12,597 nucleotides of DNA from a virus (lineage: Duplodnaviria; Heunggongvirae; Uroviricota; Caudoviricetes): IMG/VR virus record IMGVR_UViG_2663763227_000011; one strand, written 5' to 3'. How positions within the stretch are numbered: the first letter of the stretch is position 1; the number at the start of each line of letters is the position of its first letter. The notes under the pieces were generated by a model. The model was not told where the DNA came from, made no database searches, and saw only the letters and a list, made by a program, of their open reading frames with translations. The translations under genes were made by a program, and so were the position numbers. Shown here one piece after another: positions 3,870 to 12,597 of this stretch.

Positions 3870-4925
3870 TTAACCAATTTTGACGGTAACAAATTTGCGA
3901 ATATCTGCCGGTACCGGCTGCGGTGCACTGTGTGTCTGCACGTACTCAATCGCCGGATCGCCGTCCTCAATCCAGTTTTTCGGGTAAAACATGTTTTGTG
4001 TTGCGCCCGTTCTTACCGCTTCCTGATCCATTATCGCACCATAGGCCACCAGCCCTTTATTGTTGGTGTTACCTAGGACCAGCAAATCAGGCTCAAGGAA
4101 ATATTTTTCGGTACCATCGCTGTCAGTGTATTTGCCGGAATAGACGATAAGGGCCAGATCACCAAGATAGCCTTTAAAGCTCACCACTTCGCCCAGGTTT
4201 TTACAGGCCAGTTCGGCGGCGGATTCTGAACCACGGGAAAGATCGTACAGCTCACGGAATTTTTTAAAGCTGCGTAACGTTCGCCATACCTCAGCGCCCA
4301 TAATCATGACGTTTGCGGGGCAACCAGCCTGATCGGCGTATAGTTCGATATCATAGATTGGATCGTGGGTTTCTTTGTCCTGCTCTGACCATTTTTTCCC
4401 GTCGGCCTGCTCTATGATGTTTTTTTCCGGTATCTTCCAGTCGATTTCATAGCGCTCTATGCCTTCGCCCTCAATGATGTTTTTTCCGGTCGTTACCGCA
4501 TTTACCGCCAGCCATTCCACGCGCGCTTTTATGGCGTTTATCTGGCGGCGCATATTGCCAGTAATCAGGCGCATACGGCGATAGGTAGGGTCGTTAAGCT
4601 GTGCCGGATCTTCTCCAGCCATGCGCATGATGGTTTTCGTTGGATCGATTTCGTGCTTTGGCTTCATGTAGCCAGGTTTAATCGTGCTGGTTTCGTACCC
4701 TTTATCGCGCTGAACCTGGCTACCCACCATAGGCGAACAAAACGCCGACATGGTGACTTCTTCAATGTCCAGGGTATCCAGCATGATGTTTTGCGTGCTG
4801 AATGTCGCCACGTTCGGGAAAAACAGCGTAGTAAACAGAGGGCTGAATTTAAAATCCGCAATATCCCCGCGATTCAGGTACATGAAAAGCTGGTTAGTGT
4901 TAAGTGCCGTTGCTTTGCCTGCCAT
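3870..4925 (-). CDS. Major capsid protein, lambda gpE family, 351 aa
   Basis: Several blocks match remembered lambda gpE: KFSPLFTTLFF, PGYMKPKHEIDP, DPTYRRMRLITGNMRR, FKGYLGDLALIVYSGKY...LVLGNTNNKGLVAYGAIMD, YPKNWIEDGDPAIEY. The ATG overlaps the stop of the upstream 68-aa ORF (TAATG). Confidence 0.85.
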   Translation of the reverse strand: MAGKATALNTNQLFMYLNRGDIADFKFSPLFTTLFFPNVATFSTQNIMLDTLDIEEVTMSAFCSPMVGSQVQRDKGYETSTIKPGYMKPKHEIDPTKTIMRMAGEDPAQLNDPTYRRMRLITGNMRRQINAIKARVEWLAVNAVTTGKNIIEGEGIERYEIDWKIPEKNIIEQADGKKWSEQDKETHDPIYDIELYADQAGCPANVMIMGAEVWRTLRSFKKFRELYDLSRGSESAAELACKNLGEVVSFKGYLGDLALIVYSGKYTDSDGTEKYFLEPDLLVLGNTNNKGLVAYGAIMDQEAVRTGATQNMFYPKNWIEDGDPAIEYVQTHSAPQPVPADIRKFVTVKIG

Positions 4926-6244: not shown

Positions 6245-6292
6245 ATTTATTTTTACCCCCTCGTTTAAAAAGTTTTGAGTTGTGCCTCCCCT

Positions 6293-6519
6293 TGTCTACC
6301 TTATCTACCTTAGTGGCCCTCATGCCAGTAATGGCGCGGCTTTCAGCGGGGTAGAGTGCTTTTATCCACTATCTACCCCGTGTCTACCTCCCTGTCTGAT
6401 TCAGGTAAAATCAGGTAGAGAGGGTAGATAGTGGGTAGACAGTAAAAAAAGGCTATCTACCTAACTTAATGCACTGAATTAAATGTATTTTTCTTTACTC
6501 AGGTAGACAGGGTAGACAG
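6293..6519. repeat. Iteron-type replication origin: about 11 copies of GGTAGA(C/G)AG / CTnTCTACC in both orientations flanking an AT-rich segment
   Basis: TCTACC at 6295, 6304, 6372, 6383, 6456; GGTAGA at 6350, 6414, 6423, 6434, 6502, 6511; AT-rich stretch 6462-6500. Lies directly 3' of the primase/helicase gene, as in PICI and plasmid origins. Confidence 0.7.
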
Positions 6520-6532
6520 CAATTACAAAAAA

Positions 6533-8287
6533 TTATAAAAACGCGTCGCACTCGTCTGTTGTTATTGCGTTAGTCTGCGTTACCCCCTTAACTTTCCGCG
6601 TAATATATTCATGTCCGTAAACTTTTGCGGCAGGCTTCATAGCCTTTCCAAAGTCATTTACGTTTAGCGGTTTGCTCCTGCCTGCGTATGCCATAAACGC
6701 CAGATAGACGCGGTAAAGGCTGTTCCTGGTCGTGTACTTCACTGAATCGCCACCGCCCCCCATCATCAGGCCGCGCGCTTCCTCCAGAAAATTCAGGAAC
6801 TGGCAAAACTCAATAACCGGATCCGTCTGTTGCTTTATTGCCAGTGCTTCATCACCGTCACGCTGTTCCAGTAGTAAAGCCCGTGCCTTCTCAGGGTCGG
6901 TAAAGTTCGCCAGCAATCGGCGGATAATGACAGGGATTTCAGCCGCGATCTTTTCCGGTAGCTCCCTGTCTTTTTCGGCCTCACTGACGATATTGTCGAA
7001 ACGGAAAATCACGCGACGACGTGCCACACCTCCGGCCCGTTCGGTGAATATCATCGGGTTATTGTTGGTCGCCAGCACCACCGCCCTGATTACAGCCGTG
7101 AAACGCTTTTCGTATTTCGGGTTAATTTCCACGGGGTCACCGCCCGTGATTTTCTTGATGCCCGTTCCTTCGCCTGTATATTTCGGCTGGTCAGCCAGGA
7201 CGATAAGACGACTCCCGACAACCTGCGCACGTCCACCAGCATCATCAAGCGATGTCATTTCAGCGCTTACCGTGTTCTGTTTCCCTGCCAGAAGGCTGGC
7301 TATGTGCGTGAATGTACTTTTACCGCTCCCGCCGTCTCCGGTGGCCTCAATAAACATCTGCCAGTCGTACCGGTTCGCCATAATCATGTACAGCGCGGCA
7401 CATATACGCATCATCTTGCGCGGGTCTTTTCCGGCTGCGTGCTCAAGCCATTTATGAAAGTTTGGCGCGTTATCGCGGATGTTCTCCCCTGGTGCTGGTG
7501 GCGTGTACTCAATGCCGTTGTGCGTGGTGATCCAGTTCTCCGGCGTGTGCGGGGAAAATCCCCCCGTTTTCAGGTCAAGCGCACCATTGGCGAACGGCAG
7601 CAAATCGCCGGACGGCTCGCCCATTGGTTCGGCAATAACTTTTAACGCTTCCACGGCGTTATTGATTACGCGCTTGCTGAAAGTGGCCCTGTGCTCTGAA
7701 TAGATCGCCACCATTTCGCGGCTAAGTTCCATTGTGCTGACCGGACACCATACCCCGCCGCGCCATACGTGAACGATTTCACTTTCAGGATGTACGCAAA
7801 CGCCATCAAAGCGATCGGCAAGCAGCTGCGCGCGCTCACTGTCCGCCATCTGCGAAAGTTGCGCCTTTTGCTTTACCGGAAGCTCAATGACCAGACCATC
7901 AGAAAGATTCTGGCGCTCACGGGCCAGATATTCGCGCCAGTTCTCCACCTTCTGACCGTGCATACCATCAGGGTAAAAATTTGCATCCTGTACGCCTGCC
8001 GCCGCCAGCTTCTGGCCAATCGCCTTTATCATTACTGGCGCAAGATATCCGGCCCTGAATATGCGCACGGATTTTCTGCCTTCCGGCACAATTTGCAGCT
8101 TATCCAGTTCTGATAACTGCTGCTCCCCAAGCCACACAGGAGGCTCATTATCTCCGGCCATACGCGCATCATGTTCCTGCCATTGTTTCGCGTGTGCCCA
8201 GGCATCACTACCCGCAAAAATAATGACTTCTGTTCCTTTGTGTTTTATGCCGCGTGACTGCTGTTTTACGTTCGGTGCCAGTTTCAT
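6533..8287 (-). CDS. Primase / replication initiator with SF3-type P-loop NTPase domain (P4-family primase-helicase; Pri-Rep-like), 584 aa
   Basis: Walker A motif GDGGSGKST and Walker B-like RLIVLAD in the C-terminal half, a long N-terminal primase-like region, adjacent iteron origin. ATG overlaps the upstream stop (ATGA). Confidence 0.9.
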   Translation of the reverse strand: MKLAPNVKQQSRGIKHKGTEVIIFAGSDAWAHAKQWQEHDARMAGDNEPPVWLGEQQLSELDKLQIVPEGRKSVRIFRAGYLAPVMIKAIGQKLAAAGVQDANFYPDGMHGQKVENWREYLARERQNLSDGLVIELPVKQKAQLSQMADSERAQLLADRFDGVCVHPESEIVHVWRGGVWCPVSTMELSREMVAIYSEHRATFSKRVINNAVEALKVIAEPMGEPSGDLLPFANGALDLKTGGFSPHTPENWITTHNGIEYTPPAPGENIRDNAPNFHKWLEHAAGKDPRKMMRICAALYMIMANRYDWQMFIEATGDGGSGKSTFTHIASLLAGKQNTVSAEMTSLDDAGGRAQVVGSRLIVLADQPKYTGEGTGIKKITGGDPVEINPKYEKRFTAVIRAVVLATNNNPMIFTERAGGVARRRVIFRFDNIVSEAEKDRELPEKIAAEIPVIIRRLLANFTDPEKARALLLEQRDGDEALAIKQQTDPVIEFCQFLNFLEEARGLMMGGGGDSVKYTTRNSLYRVYLAFMAYAGRSKPLNVNDFGKAMKPAAKVYGHEYITRKVKGVTQTNAITTDECDAFL

Positions 8288-8583
8288 TTTTTACCCCTGA
8301 ATCCGTTAATCATGGTTTTCAGCTTCTGGATGTTTGCCCGTGCCCTGGCGTTGCTGGTGGGCACGTTATGCGGCGCGGTCTGTACCAGAGAAAAATCACG
8401 CCGGAACTGATAAACAGGCATCACGCAATCATATTCGTAACCTTCACGGCGGTAGGTTACACGCCGTTCTTCCACGCCCTTAATCATTACCGTGCCGCCG
8501 TACTGGTCGCGGTAAATATCACCGCGCGTAAATTTAGGGTGAGTGTTGCCACTGGCAGTTAAGCCAGAATATTTAAGTTTCAT
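8284..8583 (-). CDS. Hypothetical protein, 99 aa, immediately upstream of and coupled to the primase
   Basis: ATG at 8583; stop overlaps the primase start. Protein-like composition; no family recognised. Confidence 0.55.
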   Translation of the reverse strand: MKLKYSGLTASGNTHPKFTRGDIYRDQYGGTVMIKGVEERRVTYRREGYEYDCVMPVYQFRRDFSLVQTAPHNVPTSNARARANIQKLKTMINGFRGKK

Positions 8584-8588
8584 TATTT

Positions 8589-8822
8589 TTATTCTCCGGT
8601 GTGCTGTTCTTTATATCTGTCGTGCAATAGATCTATTTCTTGCAGTTCCATTATTACAGGCTCAAGAAGCGTTATTAATGCCGTGGCAATTCTTGATTTT
8701 TGTTTGTCGCGTTCATTATCGCCAAGTGTTTCAAGCCATATGCGCAATATTTCCAGCATGTTTTCACTGTGAGAAAGTGCAAGAAATGCGCGGTCTATTG
8801 TTTCGTGGTAAATATCACGCAT
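8589..8822 (-). CDS. Hypothetical protein, 77 aa
   Basis: ATG at 8822, placed 1 nt after the upstream TAA (TAATATG); TAA stop at 8589-8591. Confidence 0.5.
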   Translation of the reverse strand: MRDIYHETIDRAFLALSHSENMLEILRIWLETLGDNERDKQKSRIATALITLLEPVIMELQEIDLLHDRYKEQHTGE

Positions 8823-9258: not shown

Positions 9259-9478
9259 GTACCCCTCCGCATTTTTTTTCGTTAGAAATAAGCGTTCTTC
9301 TTTCCTGTTCATCGCTCAGGAATACGCAGACCTCACCGCTAAGGCGTTTAAGTAAGCCGATGATTGCCCCTGATTCGCTGTCGGTCATCATGCTAGGGTA
9401 ATCCTCTGCCAGTGCGCAAATAACTTCGATTTGGTGGGCGCGTTCTGCTGCCTGTTGTAGTGTGATTTCCTGGCTCAT
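9248..9478 (-). CDS. Hypothetical protein, 76 aa
   Basis: ATG at 9478 overlaps the TGA of the upstream 66-aa ORF (ATGA); its 3' end contains the Shine-Dalgarno and start of the next gene. Confidence 0.5.
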   Translation of the reverse strand: MSQEITLQQAAERAHQIEVICALAEDYPSMMTDSESGAIIGLLKRLSGEVCVFLSDEQERRTLISNEKKCGGVHVQ

Positions 9479-9675
9479 AAGCCTACCCCCTGACGAATAC
9501 GGGCAGCAAATACCATCACGCAGCCAGCCGGAGATTGCTGGCGTGCTTCCTGTTCGCTGGTGGCCTCAATGGTAATCACGCGCGGTTGTGCCGTGCTCAG
9601 GGCGATAAAACGCCAGATGTATTTATTCAGGTTGTGCGAGTCCCGCCCTTTCGGGTGTGTGGTATGATTTCTCAT
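9475..9675 (-). CDS. Hypothetical small protein, 66 aa, first gene of the replication operon; tentatively Icd-like
   Basis: ATG at 9675 with GAGGT Shine-Dalgarno 4 nt upstream. This is the in-frame tail of the 428-aa ORF in the track, here treated as an independent gene. The YIWRFIAL motif reminds me of proteins annotated as host cell division inhibitor Icd-like in P4-like prophages (memory only). Confidence 0.5.
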   Translation of the reverse strand: MRNHTTHPKGRDSHNLNKYIWRFIALSTAQPRVITIEATSEQEARQQSPAGCVMVFAARIRQGVGL

Positions 9676-9771
9676 AGCTACCTCGATACTGTTGCTATCG
9701 TTGGTGGTTAGAAGCCCCGTTACTGCTCCTACAGTGCGGGGTTTCGTCGTTTCTGTGCCTTTCATCAATAA

Positions 9772-9854
9772 GGTGTAAGACACAATGTAAAACAATGGTG
9801 TCTTACACGTCAACCCTTCAAAATATTTTTTTTTCGTGTATATTGTCTTACACC
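9772..9854. promoter_or_regulatory. Divergent back-to-back promoters with three copies of an 11-bp operator half-site GTGTAAGACAC
   Basis: Perfect inverted repeat GTGTAAGACAC (9773-9783) / GTGTCTTACAC (9798-9808) with a 14-bp spacer, plus a third half-site TGTCTTACACC (9844-9854). Leftward promoter: -35 TTGACG (rc of 9809-9814) and -10 TACATT, with the inverted repeat spanning its core. Rightward promoter: -35 TTCAAA (9817-9822), 16-nt spacer, -10 TATATT (9839-9844), overlapped by the third half-site. Confidence 0.55.
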
Positions 9855-9874
9855 AAAAACATGAGGGGTTAAAC

Positions 9875-10054
9875 ATGGCAACGGGTCCAAAGAATGCAAA
9901 ATCACAATCTGTAACTGCACGTATTGCCCATGAAATTATTGAAGGCATGGAGAACGTGAAAGAAGAAGGCGAAAGCACGGGACAGTTTATAAACGCAGCC
10001 ATGCGCGGCGAAATCAAACGCCGCCAGCGCCGCAAGGCCAAAGAGCAGGAGTAA
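9875..10054 (+). CDS. Small ribbon-helix-helix-like DNA-binding protein, 59 aa (candidate repressor of the divergent promoters)
   Basis: ATG 9875 with GAGGGG Shine-Dalgarno 6 nt upstream. SVTARIAHEIIEGMENVKEEGESTGQFINAAMRGEIKRRQ fits an RHH beta-strand plus two helices; good E. coli codon usage. Opposite in orientation to every other island gene. The ORF track's 9836 GTG start is rejected. Confidence 0.6.
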   Translation: MATGPKNAKSQSVTARIAHEIIEGMENVKEEGESTGQFINAAMRGEIKRRQRRKAKEQE

Positions 10055-10111
10055 CCATCACCAGCGCCGTGGTGTGAGTAACTACGGCGCATTGCTATGC
10101 AGGACAACACA

Positions 10112-10285
10112 ATGACCGATAAAGAATTGACCAAAACATTATCACCGGCACGGAAAAGACGGCGCAGAAAGATAGAGCATGAATCAGAAAGATTCGCGCC
10201 ATGTGCTTTTGCCCTTGAGCAATTCCTTAAAGAGTACAGGGAAAAGCGCTCATTGCAGGTATGGCAACGAACTGAACCAGACTGA
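10112..10285 (+). CDS. Small, highly basic protein, 57 aa, co-transcribed with the RHH gene
   Basis: ATG 10112 with AGGA 7 nt upstream (the ORF track starts at 10097). Contains RKRRRRK; rare codons suggest horizontal origin; followed by + strand terminators. No family recognised. Confidence 0.45.
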   Translation: MTDKELTKTLSPARKRRRRKIEHESERFAPCAFALEQFLKEYREKRSLQVWQRTEPD

Positions 10286-10364
10286 TTGCATTGCCCACCA
10301 GCCGCAAATGTGGCATTGTTGGCAATGCTCATGCGTTGGGGATAACGTGTAGCTTGTGTCGAGG

Positions 10365-10393
10365 GGCCACCGTAGCGGGTGGCCTTTGTTTTG
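10365..10393 (+). terminator. Rho-independent terminator of the + strand cassette
   Basis: GGCCACC-gtagcg-GGTGGCC hairpin followed by TTTGTTTTG. A second + strand hairpin with a GCAA loop and T-run at 10488-10520 may act as a backup. Confidence 0.55.
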
Positions 10394-10761
10394 CCCGTTA
10401 TTCGGCAATTGTGGCGCTTCTCCACATGGTTGATATAATCCCACTGCTCAGATTCATTTTTTGCGCAGTAGGTTAATTGTTCACAAAGGCGCTCCGGCAA
10501 CGGGGCGCTTTTTGTTTTTATTAGTTTGTAGAAACCTGACTCAGAGATAATGCTCATATTCTGATTGCCGTCAGGGGTGTAAGTTAAATTTACTCCCTTT
10601 TTATCATCAAACATCTGCAACGCTCTGGCGTTAACAATATTGGTTTCACTCCCGCCAGTAAGGCCGGAAATAACCGGAATAATTTCGGCAAAATTTTGCA
10701 GATTCTGTTTTTCAGGACGAACGAAGCCCCGCCCTTGTTCGGGAGAATATCCAGTATTCAT
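10380..10761 (-). pseudogene. KilA-N/Bro-N-like (antirepressor-like) N-terminal coding region with no in-frame stop; probably a truncated or disrupted gene
   Basis: The first ~125 aa are protein-like and contain TYTPDGNQNMSIISESGFYKLI, resembling the Bro-N/KilA-N core (P22 Ant-like SVINESGLYSLI, from memory). Beyond about 10380 the same frame continues for ~230 codons of Cys/Ser/Arg/Trp-rich junk, antisense to the + strand genes, until it joins the 66-aa ORF. The lower coordinate is approximate. Confidence 0.4.
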
Positions 10762-10813
10762 GGTTAGATCTCTGTATTAGTGGATGGGTGGCGGCTGTGT
10801 GCCGCCAGCCTGA

Positions 10814-11002
10814 TTAGTGAACTGCCTCGCAGCTGTCCTTCCATGCCAGAACTTCGGATAAAGACCAGCCAACGGAACGACCGCCCAGCTTACGCCGTGA
10901 TGGGAATTGTCCGGCTTTTTCCAGGCGGTACCGACATGAGCGGCTCAGGCCTGTAAGTTGCTGACATTCTTTTTCACGTATAAAGCGATCTGTGCTTAAC
11001 AC
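10814..11002 (-). CDS. alpA: AlpA-family phage regulatory protein (Xis-like winged-helix activator), 62 aa
   Basis: LTGLSRSCRYRLEKAGQFPSRRKLGGRSVGWSLSEVLAW matches the AlpA/Vis family signature (TG-SR-T-Y...FP...LG-RSVGW...EV--W). GTG start at 11002 with GGGGGA Shine-Dalgarno; TAA stop at 10814-10816. Confidence 0.85.
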   Translation of the reverse strand: MLSTDRFIREKECQQLTGLSRSCRYRLEKAGQFPSRRKLGGRSVGWSLSEVLAWKDSCEAVH

Positions 11003-11280
11003 AATTCCCCCTTTGTTGTTTCTTAAAGAGTCATTGGGTGGATTATTGGGTTGGGTTGTGTCGGATTGTGTCAGGGTGTTTGTGGAATGGCAAACACTGG
11101 CTGCGGTCGTTTTACAGAAGCAGGGGGAATGAGAATAAAAACTCTTTTAATTCATTATGATGCAAAGGCATAAAATTTTACTTTTACGCCTTTTTTACAT
11201 ATTTTTAAGAGTGATTCGCCAGTGTATAAAAAAACAGTACACCTATAAAAATCAAATGGTTATTACGATGGCTGATTTTT

Positions 11281-11367: not shown

Positions 11368-12597
11368 TTATATTTCTCTGGCTATTGGCAATGTGGTTAC
11401 GTTTTCATGTGTTCCCGCCAGTATCCCTAACCGCTCCGTCCACATATCCAGCGCGTCACGTTTCGCATCCAGATAACGGGAATGGTTATAGACTCGTTGC
11501 ATCCCTGGCATCTGATGACCTGTAAGCTGCTCCACGACGTGAGGATCCACGCCTAAATCGTTCAGCATCGTTGTAAAGGTGCGCCGGATGTCATGCAGTG
11601 ACCAGTGAGGGTGTTTTAGCCTCCTGTGCGCTAATCTGCCGTACTGCGACACGCTTGTTTCCTGTTTCACTTCCCCCAGCAATAAGCCCGTGTGCCTGTT
11701 CTGCTCCACCAGCTGCGTGACGAACGGCAGTATTGCTTCCGGTATGGGCCGGAATATTGCCACCTTCGTTTTGCTGTGTTCTTTCGGCACGGTCCAGAGC
11801 ATTTCGGTAAAATCCCACTCGCTGATCTCCGATAACCTCAGTTCTACCGTCCGGCATCCGAAAACAATCAGGAGGCGGATTAGTGCGACGTAGTAAGGGG
11901 AAAATATTTTTTTGTCCAGTGCCTGCAATAATTCGCCAAGTTCTTTGGTGCTTAAGACACGCTCGCTTATATCCGGTTTTTTCCCAACGTCCGCCACACT
12001 CATATCATCAAGAACGTTGCTGATTGCATAGCGCCGCCTCCGGCAGAACTTAAGCGCCTGTTTGCACGTCTGTAGCAAGAATCCGGCAGTAACAGGCGTT
12101 CGCTTTGCCACCTGGTCAAAACAGGCCAGCCAGTGCCGTAGCTCGCATTTATCCAGCGGCATAGCACCAATGTGCTGTATTACGTGATTATTAAGGCGCT
12201 TTTTCAGGGCGGCATAATCCACGCGGTTTTCCTTTACGTAAGACTCAAGCCAGTAGGTAAGCGCATCGCCAACCGTTACGGGCTTTAACGCTTTCTGTAC
12301 GGTGTAATTCATCTCATGACGTGGATTTTTCCCCTCAGCAAGCCAAGCGCGACACTGTGCCGCTTTTTCCCTGGCAGCTTTCAGACTCAGATCAGGATAA
12401 TTTCCCAGCTTAATCCGTTCCGGTCGTGCTCCCCTTCCCGTTCCGGCCCTGTAGGTGAAATACCAGGTTAAAAGGCCGCTGGTTGAATGCCTGACGCTCA
12501 GGTTTCCACCGTCATTAAGAAAGGCTGTTTTTTGGGCGGGTGTGCCGTTGATTTTCCTTAGCTGTGTATCACTCAGTTTGTTAAGTGCTCTGCGCAT
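11368..12597 (-). CDS. int: Tyrosine-type site-specific integrase, P4/CP4-57 family, 409 aa
   Basis: N-terminus LSDTQLRKINGTP...GGNLSVRHSTSGLLTWYFTYR matches the P4-type integrase arm-binding domain. The C-terminal catalytic region has RTVELRLSEISEWDF, HDIRRTF and the HxxxRxxY-type tail (GHQMPGMQRVYNHSRY). The start codon sits exactly at the window edge, so the true start and the adjacent att site cannot be verified. Confidence 0.9.
   Translation of the reverse strand: MRRALNKLSDTQLRKINGTPAQKTAFLNDGGNLSVRHSTSGLLTWYFTYRAGTGRGARPERIKLGNYPDLSLKAAREKAAQCRAWLAEGKNPRHEMNYTVQKALKPVTVGDALTYWLESYVKENRVDYAALKKRLNNHVIQHIGAMPLDKCELRHWLACFDQVAKRTPVTAGFLLQTCKQALKFCRRRRYAISNVLDDMSVADVGKKPDISERVLSTKELGELLQALDKKIFSPYYVALIRLLIVFGCRTVELRLSEISEWDFTEMLWTVPKEHSKTKVAIFRPIPEAILPFVTQLVEQNRHTGLLLGEVKQETSVSQYGRLAHRRLKHPHWSLHDIRRTFTTMLNDLGVDPHVVEQLTGHQMPGMQRVYNHSRYLDAKRDALDMWTERLGILAGTHENVTTLPIAREI

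Follow-up and report, generated by a model that had tools for sequence, protein, structure and literature searches.

How does a reading frame stay free of stop codons for 1287 nt when known protein families match only its two ends and its middle lies antisense to the genes and signals of the other strand? The question is raised by a stretch of viral DNA of 12,597 nucleotides (IMG/VR record IMGVR_UViG_2663763227_000011), referred to here in its whole length as the window, which is an EcCICFT073-type phage-inducible chromosomal island (PICI) located beside phoQ. On its minus strand, an open reading frame (ORF) of 428 codons spans positions 9475-10761, from an ATG placed 52 nt past the stop of alpA to the stop of an Icd-like gene. 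A sequence-only reading of the window had described the ORF with this extent and as a composite, and both points hold: the frame consists of an antirepressor remnant, the antisense of a plus-strand cassette encoding a ribbon-helix-helix (RHH) protein, and a separate 66-aa gene. The same reading took the middle for accidental junk, a view that we do not share, since the frame is kept open across many diverged alleles and in several genera and mirrors the eta/kil genes of P4. We regard the ORF, with moderate confidence, as the PICI version of the nested eta/kil genes, provided with a protein repressor cassette and kept open for the sake of translation.

Anatomy of the composite frame

Profile matches were obtained at the ends of the ORF only. 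Codons 82-362, the 281 codons that constitute its middle (about 230 in the earlier estimate), match no family in Pfam, PHROG or NCBIfam; opposite to them, on the plus strand, lie a YlcI/YnfO gene, a 57-aa gene, two terminators and a promoter/operator region, as the composite view had it. The middle had also been described as rich in Cys, Ser, Arg and Trp. When compared to three long genes of the window, this is correct for Cys (5.3% vs. 1.0%) and Ser (10.7% vs. 4.2%), slightly so for Arg (7.8% vs. 6.5%) and incorrect for Trp (1.4% vs. 1.6%), and acidic residues are depleted. A codon-usage scan, which had been proposed as a check of coding, points to the plus strand in the YlcI gene and to the minus strand in the Icd-like gene; elsewhere its signal is weak, and it is biased by the lack of stops.

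The last 66 codons (363-428; 9475-9675, minus strand), which form the in-frame 3' end of the ORF, had been considered a gene of their own, and this is confirmed. They follow a GAGG Shine-Dalgarno sequence, a promoter-like site lies 110 nt upstream, and their stop overlaps the ATG of the next gene (ATGA). The NCBIfam profile phage_ICD_like (NF033153) matches aa 381-424 of the ORF (E=2.9e-18) and phrog_6196 matches aa 339-426; variable sites are distributed over the three codon positions as 13/14/27, with an excess at the third. The profile NF033153 also matches aa 146-193 of P4 Eta (E=1.2e-20), and pairwise BLASTP between the Icd-like protein and P4 Kil gives 28% identity (E=0.005). The 66-aa Icd-like gene is real and separate, and shares its family with P4 Kil. 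Its 5'-leader (9680-9745, minus strand) contains two hairpins, recognized by folding and by comparison of alleles: hairpin 1 (9711-9745) shows compensatory changes in 8 pairs across 12 alleles, an invariant CTAACCACCAACGATAG comes next, and part of the Shine-Dalgarno sequence is base-paired in hairpin 2 (9680-9705). These hairpins may limit the independent translation of the toxic Icd-like gene.

The N-terminal part had been read as a Bro-N-like domain extending over about 125 protein-like codons. Its origin from an antirepressor stands, but the domain is not intact and the similarity is shorter. As judged from homologues, codons 1-81 are a chimeric, deletion-truncated AntA/Bro-N antirepressor remnant, in which an AntA-type leader (codons 1 to ~47, starting with MNTGYSPEQGRGFVRP; 10616-10761, minus strand) is joined to 35 residues of a Bro-N gene (codons ~47-81; 10519-10623, minus strand) that correspond to residues ~73-107 of the intact 192-aa protein P0072. 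The leader is common to the intact 196-aa AntA antirepressor P0051 (locus L006) and to loci without Bro or AntA genes. Homologues of aa 1-136 form a mosaic of AntA-type and Bro-N-type genes, and at the DNA level an AntA-type locus matches window positions 11100-10616, and Bro-N loci match 10623-10519. One homologue, the 175-aa chimera P0012, is equal to the window ORF over aa 1-81 except for one residue and continues into a complete Bro-type C-terminus. The Pfam Bro-N profile (PF02498) matches aa 52-91 over profile positions 37-85 of 96 with E=0.067 and 14.2 bits, below the cut-off of 25.6, compared to 72 bits for the intact P0072; the PHROG anti-repressor match over aa 49-88 is weak (E about 1e-4 to 1e-5), and AntA (PF08346), which occupies aa 43-117 of P0051, has no Pfam match in the window ORF. 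Similarity to antirepressor genes ends, at the DNA level, at 10519 (codon 81), and codons 82-125 are the reverse of the plus-strand terminator region. The L006 locus itself (4001-4784) carries neither an RHH cassette nor an Icd-like gene, and an unrelated 66-aa ORF overlaps its AntA stop.

A comparison with homologous islands had been proposed, in order to find an intact Bro-N gene and the insertion or deletion junctions, and locus L007 provides both. There, an intact 192-aa Bro-N gene is followed, after ~160 bp, by the same terminator and cassette (90.5% identical, window 10519-10025), and 445 bp of L007 (2596-3040) are missing from the window. The lost segment comprises the 3' 285 bp of Bro-N with its stop, a spacer of ~157 bp and the delimiting TAA of the open frame downstream. 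The junction (10518-10519) shows a microhomology of 1-2 bp, is at most a few bases away from where the T-tract of terminator T2 ends, and was found in 136 of 5426 complete E. coli genomes. Comparison with L007-like loci thus attributes the loss of the antirepressor 3' end to a 445-bp deletion. That the gene has no stop of its own had been noticed correctly; the cause proposed, replacement of its 3' part by insertion of the cassette, is ruled out, because intact Bro-N and the same cassette adjoin in relatives.

The prediction that automated annotation would call a single protein here proved right in part. The exact 428-aa sequence is found on 64 NCBI contigs under the name 'host cell division inhibitor Icd-like protein', within a group of NCBI entries of 428-430 aa, but at near-identical loci of complete genomes RefSeq (PGAP) calls the Icd-like (66-94 aa), YlcI/YnfO and 57-aa genes and leaves the N-terminal part uncalled. 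Pieces of the stop-free frame have been deposited as hypothetical proteins as well (L007 3059-3509 and L008 2837-3209; P0005, P0029, P0036, and P0037), one cluster of them being present on 95 contigs, and PGAP marks matching stretches as 'incomplete' pseudogenes. The locus fits neither 'one 428-aa Icd-like protein' nor 'only a 66-aa gene', and fragments of the frame in protein databases now seed pseudogene calls.

Openness of the frame in the window and in its relatives

Codons 82-362 of the window ORF contain 0 stops, and the other five frames contain 9-15 each. None of 20000 dinucleotide-preserving shuffles left the middle open, and an estimate from base composition gives about 1e-6. The sense and antisense frames share their third codon positions, and when the YlcI and orf57 proteins are given and synonymous codons are drawn at random, the antisense frame is open with P=0.37 and 0.80, respectively. 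Allowing for both plus-strand genes, the chance of an open middle is estimated at about 1e-4; for the ~165 of the 281 middle codons that lie outside these genes the estimate is ~3.5e-4. The middle frame is therefore open far beyond chance. Variable sites in three segments without a plus-strand gene are distributed over the codon positions as 30/29/24, 6/7/3, and 23/16/20, and this even spread suggests that the middle peptide itself is not under selection, in agreement with the earlier view that the middle is not conserved as a protein.

Three different YlcI alleles among the relatives have 430-435 open codons in this frame. Open stretches of 356 and 318 codons were found in L007 and L008, whose Bro-N genes retain their stop, which indicates that the open frame predates the deletion and that the deletion joined the remnant in phase to a pre-existing stop-free frame. 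Eighty further loci were taken from IMG/VR viral contigs, 75 of them with the upstream end of the frame inside the contig; at least 300 codons are open in 52/75 and 200-299 in 9/75. When the interval between the alpA stop and the icd start was compared in 39 clusters, 21 were stop-free in frame over 398-1020 nt and 6 more had a single stop, located upstream of the ATG of the ORF in the representatives checked; the other frames contained 2-28 stops each. For the segment of ~195 nt from the YlcI start to the icd start, opposite to which no gene lies, 9 out of 10 sequence clusters are stop-free in frame, with 3-8 stops in the other two frames.

The frame is still open in sequences that are 56-86% identical to the window over 843 nt, and random substitutions at the observed numbers keep it open in 0.02-1% of trials per pair. 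Six variants that would create a stop in the window background were seen, all of them with a second change, and none gives a stop in its own locus. The corresponding test for depletion of single substitutions (6 observed vs. 9.1 expected, P=0.19), which is informative only once the actual codons of each locus are checked, was not significant. The YlcI and orf57 genes maintain the same phase relative to the icd frame at each of 9 different spacer lengths, and the loci that are out of phase are exactly those with a broken frame. The middle peptide, in turn, is entirely different between alleles.

Other genera were reached through YlcI homologues, and in Edwardsiella, Serratia, and Yersinia the frame is open for 257, 239, and 281 codons, respectively. 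In Pectobacterium (389 aa, L092 2442-3611) and Dickeya (282 aa, L095 2430-3278) a long minus-strand ORF runs from the alpA stop across the cassette and then across the Icd-like gene out of frame, to end in frame with the following gene of 60-63 aa. This variant suggests that continuous translation is kept, and not a particular fusion protein. In loci without Bro or AntA genes, an ATG with a Shine-Dalgarno-like sequence was found 8-57 nt past the alpA stop in four alpA-allele contexts, often directly before the terminator hairpin, and in Dickeya the start of the long ORF overlaps the alpA stop. Readthrough of the AlpA stop was considered and set aside, since this stop is in frame in 17/39 clusters, against 13 expected, which was not considered significant. 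In many loci the long frame is bounded upstream by the alpA stop in phase, among them L013, L020, L038, L050, L081, and L085, and the AlpA protein P0067 continues into the long frame before ending. A profile search of genome contigs with an alignment that included P4 Kil gave no match.

The repressor cassette and the proposed role of translation

The first gene of the plus-strand cassette (9875-10054) encodes a 59-aa protein with both a YlcI/YnfO family match (NF041551, 64 bits) and a ribbon-helix-helix topology, a candidate immunity repressor; at relatives some repressor alleles are Arc-, HicB- or DUF3950-like. The second gene, orf57 (10112-10285, plus strand), encodes a basic protein of 57 aa that matches phrog_21027 (E=1.6e-15), is called 'hypothetical' by PGAP in relatives and shows an excess of variable third codon positions. 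Downstream on the same strand lie two predicted intrinsic terminators, T1 (10362-10396), with a 10-bp GC-rich stem of -18.5 kcal/mol followed by UUUGUUUUG, and T2 (10483-10521), with a hairpin of -20.5 kcal/mol (z -4.8) followed by UUUUUGUUUUUAUU. The antisense of T2 constitutes codons 82-93 of the long ORF (KTKSAPLPERLC), and the hairpin that it would form in minus-strand RNA has -13.7 kcal/mol. At two loci the cassette carries cargo after the RHH gene, namely a 118-aa gene with a SWIM zinc-finger match (L005) and a 176-aa protein with an N-terminal hydrophobic stretch (L036).

A promoter-like site for the cassette (TTCAAA-16-TATATT; 9817-9844, plus strand) and one for the Icd-like gene and the replication operon (TTGACG-18-TACATT; 9784-9813, minus strand) were recognized as consensus matches, the latter inside the long ORF and the counterpart of P4 P_LE. 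An operator-like inverted repeat (GTGTAAGACAC / GTGTCTTACAC; 9773-9808) overlaps the -35 and -10 of the minus-strand promoter, and a third half-site, TGTCTTACACC (9844-9854), is found just past the -10 of the cassette promoter. Among 12 allele representatives, the -35 of the Icd-like promoter has the same position with operators around it, and each RHH allele has its own pair of 10-13-nt repeats at that place. Compared in this way, the repeats look like the repressor/operator specificity types of an immunity region, with at least ten specificities, and the RHH protein is a candidate repressor of the Icd-like/replication promoter. Allele repeats located between -145 and -95 from the icd ATG were recorded in L002, L003, L013, L023, L035, L038, L042, L045, L046, L065, and L071. 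The available literature leaves the global repressor of Gram-negative PICIs unclear or not identified, and our literature searches on YlcI/YnfO and on a PICI repressor returned nothing relevant.

The anatomy of the locus, the deletion, the family memberships of its parts and the conserved, non-random openness of the frame have to be explained together, and P4 offers a precedent. According to PMC10111431, which summarizes Forti et al. (1999), a constitutive promoter lies inside eta, Kil is a truncated form of Eta, and the translation of Eta prevents termination; by the same account, synthesis of full-length Eta occurs only from the late promoter upstream, with coupling to the alpA homologue. 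In EcCICFT073, AlpA activates its own promoter and the downstream genes (PMC6092414). By analogy with P4, we hypothesize that the long frame is probably translated in order to carry transcription through the cassette, and that the middle once regarded as junk most likely undergoes translation for the sake of the process itself and not of its product. In the quiescent island, the RHH protein would repress the internal promoter. Once alpA is activated in a helper-dependent manner, ribosomes that start at the ATG behind alpA would translate transcripts from the alpA promoter over the full length of the frame; they would melt the hairpins derived from the terminators and exclude Rho from the RNA, allowing transcription to reach the Icd-like and replication genes. 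Selection would then act on the uninterrupted frame and not on the peptide. In the window copy, the 445-bp deletion would have placed an AntA/Bro-N gene that was already a chimera in register with this stop-free frame, giving the 428-aa ORF.

Other explanations have to be weighed against this one. The ORF could be an accidental composite, in which a deletion removed a stop and a functionless frame ran by luck into the Icd-like gene, leaving an annotation artefact. The N-terminal part is indeed a truncated chimeric remnant, the middle has neither a family match nor an excess of variable third positions, RefSeq PGAP leaves the long ORF uncalled in complete genomes, and some relatives have broken frames. 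Nevertheless, no open middle appeared among the shuffles, the frame of L007 predates the deletion, openness extends to more than 10 diverged alleles and five further genera, every variant that could create a stop is compensated, and spacer lengths differ by multiples of three only. Thus, we consider an accident unlikely. Alternatively, openness may be a by-product of the opposite strand, if the plus-strand genes, terminators, promoter and operators exclude TTA, CTA, and TCA in this phase without any selection for translation. The coinciding third codon positions and the probabilities obtained with the YlcI and orf57 proteins given lend this some weight, and inside the primase gene there is an antisense ORF of 241 aa (6732-7457, plus strand), a reminder that chance can give long antisense ORFs in coding DNA. 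Such a by-product does not account for the ~165 codons outside the plus-strand genes, nor for operators and promoters that are wholly different between alleles, yet stop-free in this frame only; the ATG and Shine-Dalgarno-like sequences at the alpA end of the frame also argue against it, as do Pectobacterium and Dickeya, which keep the long frame though it ends in another downstream gene. We judge it improbable.

A genuine full-length protein of 428 aa, with a functional and perhaps disordered or fast-evolving middle domain and a Kil/Icd-like C-terminus, would agree with the conserved frame, with the NCBI entries of 428-430 aa and with P4, where Eta is made as a full-length product according to the summary in PMC10111431. 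This possibility is very unlikely in our view: the middle peptide is wholly different between alleles, its variable sites outside the plus-strand genes show no preference for a codon position, its composition is high in Cys and Ser and low in acidic residues, codon usage across the YlcI gene points to the plus strand, family profiles find nothing in the middle, and the long ORF of Pectobacterium and Dickeya is not fused to the Icd-like domain.

Several observations also speak against a frame kept open for translation. Part of the openness follows from the plus-strand proteins. Consensus matches like those of the two promoters occur at the frequency expected by chance, and the start of the long ORF has a weak Shine-Dalgarno-like sequence (AGAGA). 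The frame is broken by frameshifts in 14/75 of the IMG/VR loci, and also in L005 and L036, which carry extra cargo and have 112 and 214 open codons; these loci suggest that the feature is dispensable for persistence of the element. Where Bro-N is intact, no obvious start codon lies near the open frame downstream; this frame may be a recent relic at such loci, or else its translation is unaccounted for. The loci are related, and locus counts overstate their independence. Furthermore, translation and anti-termination are proposed by analogy, and the P4 precedent (Forti et al., 1999) is taken from a later summary, that of PMC10111431. Natural frameshift variants occur in L056, L062, L063, L064, L068, L069, and L077, and also in L016, L043, and L089; in them the cassette genes are 1-2 nt out of phase with icd and 97-152 codons are open. 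Such loci could act as natural knock-outs of the long ORF.

With these points on both sides, a frame kept open for translation is the explanation that we favor. A wider proposal can be put forward only tentatively, as one that falls a little short of probable: in enterobacterial satellites of a widespread group, a frame of 230-480 codons would be stop-free only for ribosomes to escort RNA polymerase from the alpA promoter to the replication operon, while the convergent cassette diversified into at least ten repressor/operator specificities without ever admitting a stop in its antisense frame, and the repressor of Gram-negative PICIs would thereby be identified. In the accessible literature that was searched, we found no frame kept open across an antisense repressor cassette with terminators and allele-specific operators, and no candidate repressor for Gram-negative PICIs. 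On the favored explanation, the translation-dependent anti-termination of P4 eta/kil would extend to PICIs with a protein repressor instead of an RNA, and the locus points to allele-specific RHH repressor/operator pairs in Gram-negative PICIs. For evolution, it would be a clear case of selection on openness and not on the encoded product, in DNA that bears genes and signals of the other strand. The existing EcCICFT073 system allows direct testing.

The island and comparison with known systems

The window shows the order of genes expected of a PICI, with int-alpA, Bro zone, primase, captured late genes and a fixed chromosomal site. From phoQ at its left end, the minus-strand genes are a capsid gene (lambda E-like), a decoration gene (D-like), SSB, a D5-type primase and DUF4222, then several small genes, the region studied here, alpA and the integrase. 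Pfam matches were obtained for primase, SSB, capsid E, decoration D, AlpA and the flanking phoQ, and the window ORF at 11368-12597 is the counterpart of the integrase of relatives. The alpA gene (10814-11002, minus strand; Phage_AlpA, E=3e-18), counterpart of P4 vis, lies directly upstream of the long ORF. The spacer between them (10762-10813, minus strand) contains a GC hairpin (GGCGGC-acaca-GCCGCC) without a U-tract, flanked by direct CACTAAT repeats. Downstream of the primase, an iteron array (T(A/G)TCTACC, both orientations; 6288-6522) is probably the replication origin of the island, and a weak Rfam mir-135 match at 6365-6446 is explained by this array.

EcCICFT073 is the PICI type described in PMC6092414 and a model for Gram-negative PICIs. 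The window is 94% identical to the CFT073 island over 9300-11100, and 99.8% identical to an O25:H4 strain over 9485-11100. EcCICFT073 carries the same 428-aa ORF and shares int, alpA, the D5-type primase, the lambda E-like capsid and the D-like decoration protein. phoQ lies at the end of the window, and roxA/pepT adjoin the CFT073 island; the YlcI/operator segment differs, being another allele with 73% amino-acid identity and another operator repeat. The Bro zones of PICIs have already been linked to eta and to immunity RNAs (PMC10111431). Like the antirepressors of these zones, the remnant of the window directly follows alpA, but 35 Bro-N residues are left of it, the C-terminal 94 residues of the 175-aa form having been deleted.

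Immunity by RNA was considered for the window and rejected. Rfam finds C4, isrK, and c4-a1b1 in P4 and no C4, isrK or CI-type RNA in the window (E<=1) or in 14 related loci. The immI loci of P1 and P22 provide other comparisons. In P1 immI (c4 RNA-icd-ant), an Icd-family gene heads an operon under immunity control; in P22 immI (mnt/arc-ant), the small RHH repressors Arc and Mnt adjoin the antirepressor gene, with face-to-face or divergent promoters. The window resembles them in having an Icd-family gene in such a position and a small RHH repressor gene beside an antirepressor gene, and differs in the absence of C4 RNA and in gene order and orientation. To our knowledge, a long bridging ORF is undescribed for the P1 and P22 immI loci.

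The closest system is eta/kil of P4. In P4 (NC_001609), eta (8168-8767, 199 aa) opens with ATGATGATG at the stop of vis and has the 65-aa kil as its 3' end. In both cases a long ORF runs from the end of an alpA/vis homologue over an internal promoter (predicted in the window) and the immunity determinant, in frame to the stop of a nested Kil/Icd-like gene of 65-66 aa, and the role proposed by analogy is the one given for P4 in PMC10111431, namely that translation of upstream transcripts prevents premature termination. The immunity determinant of P4 is a sense-strand CI RNA with its target seqA, whereas in the window a protein-repressor cassette, equipped with a promoter of its own and two terminators, lies antisense within the frame. 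The window ORF is, moreover, twice as long and carries the antirepressor remnant, and the Pfam family Phage_ASH, which covers aa 22-146 of P4 Eta, does not match it. The eta/kil design is already known, and a frame that is open across an antisense protein-repressor cassette is a variant of that design.

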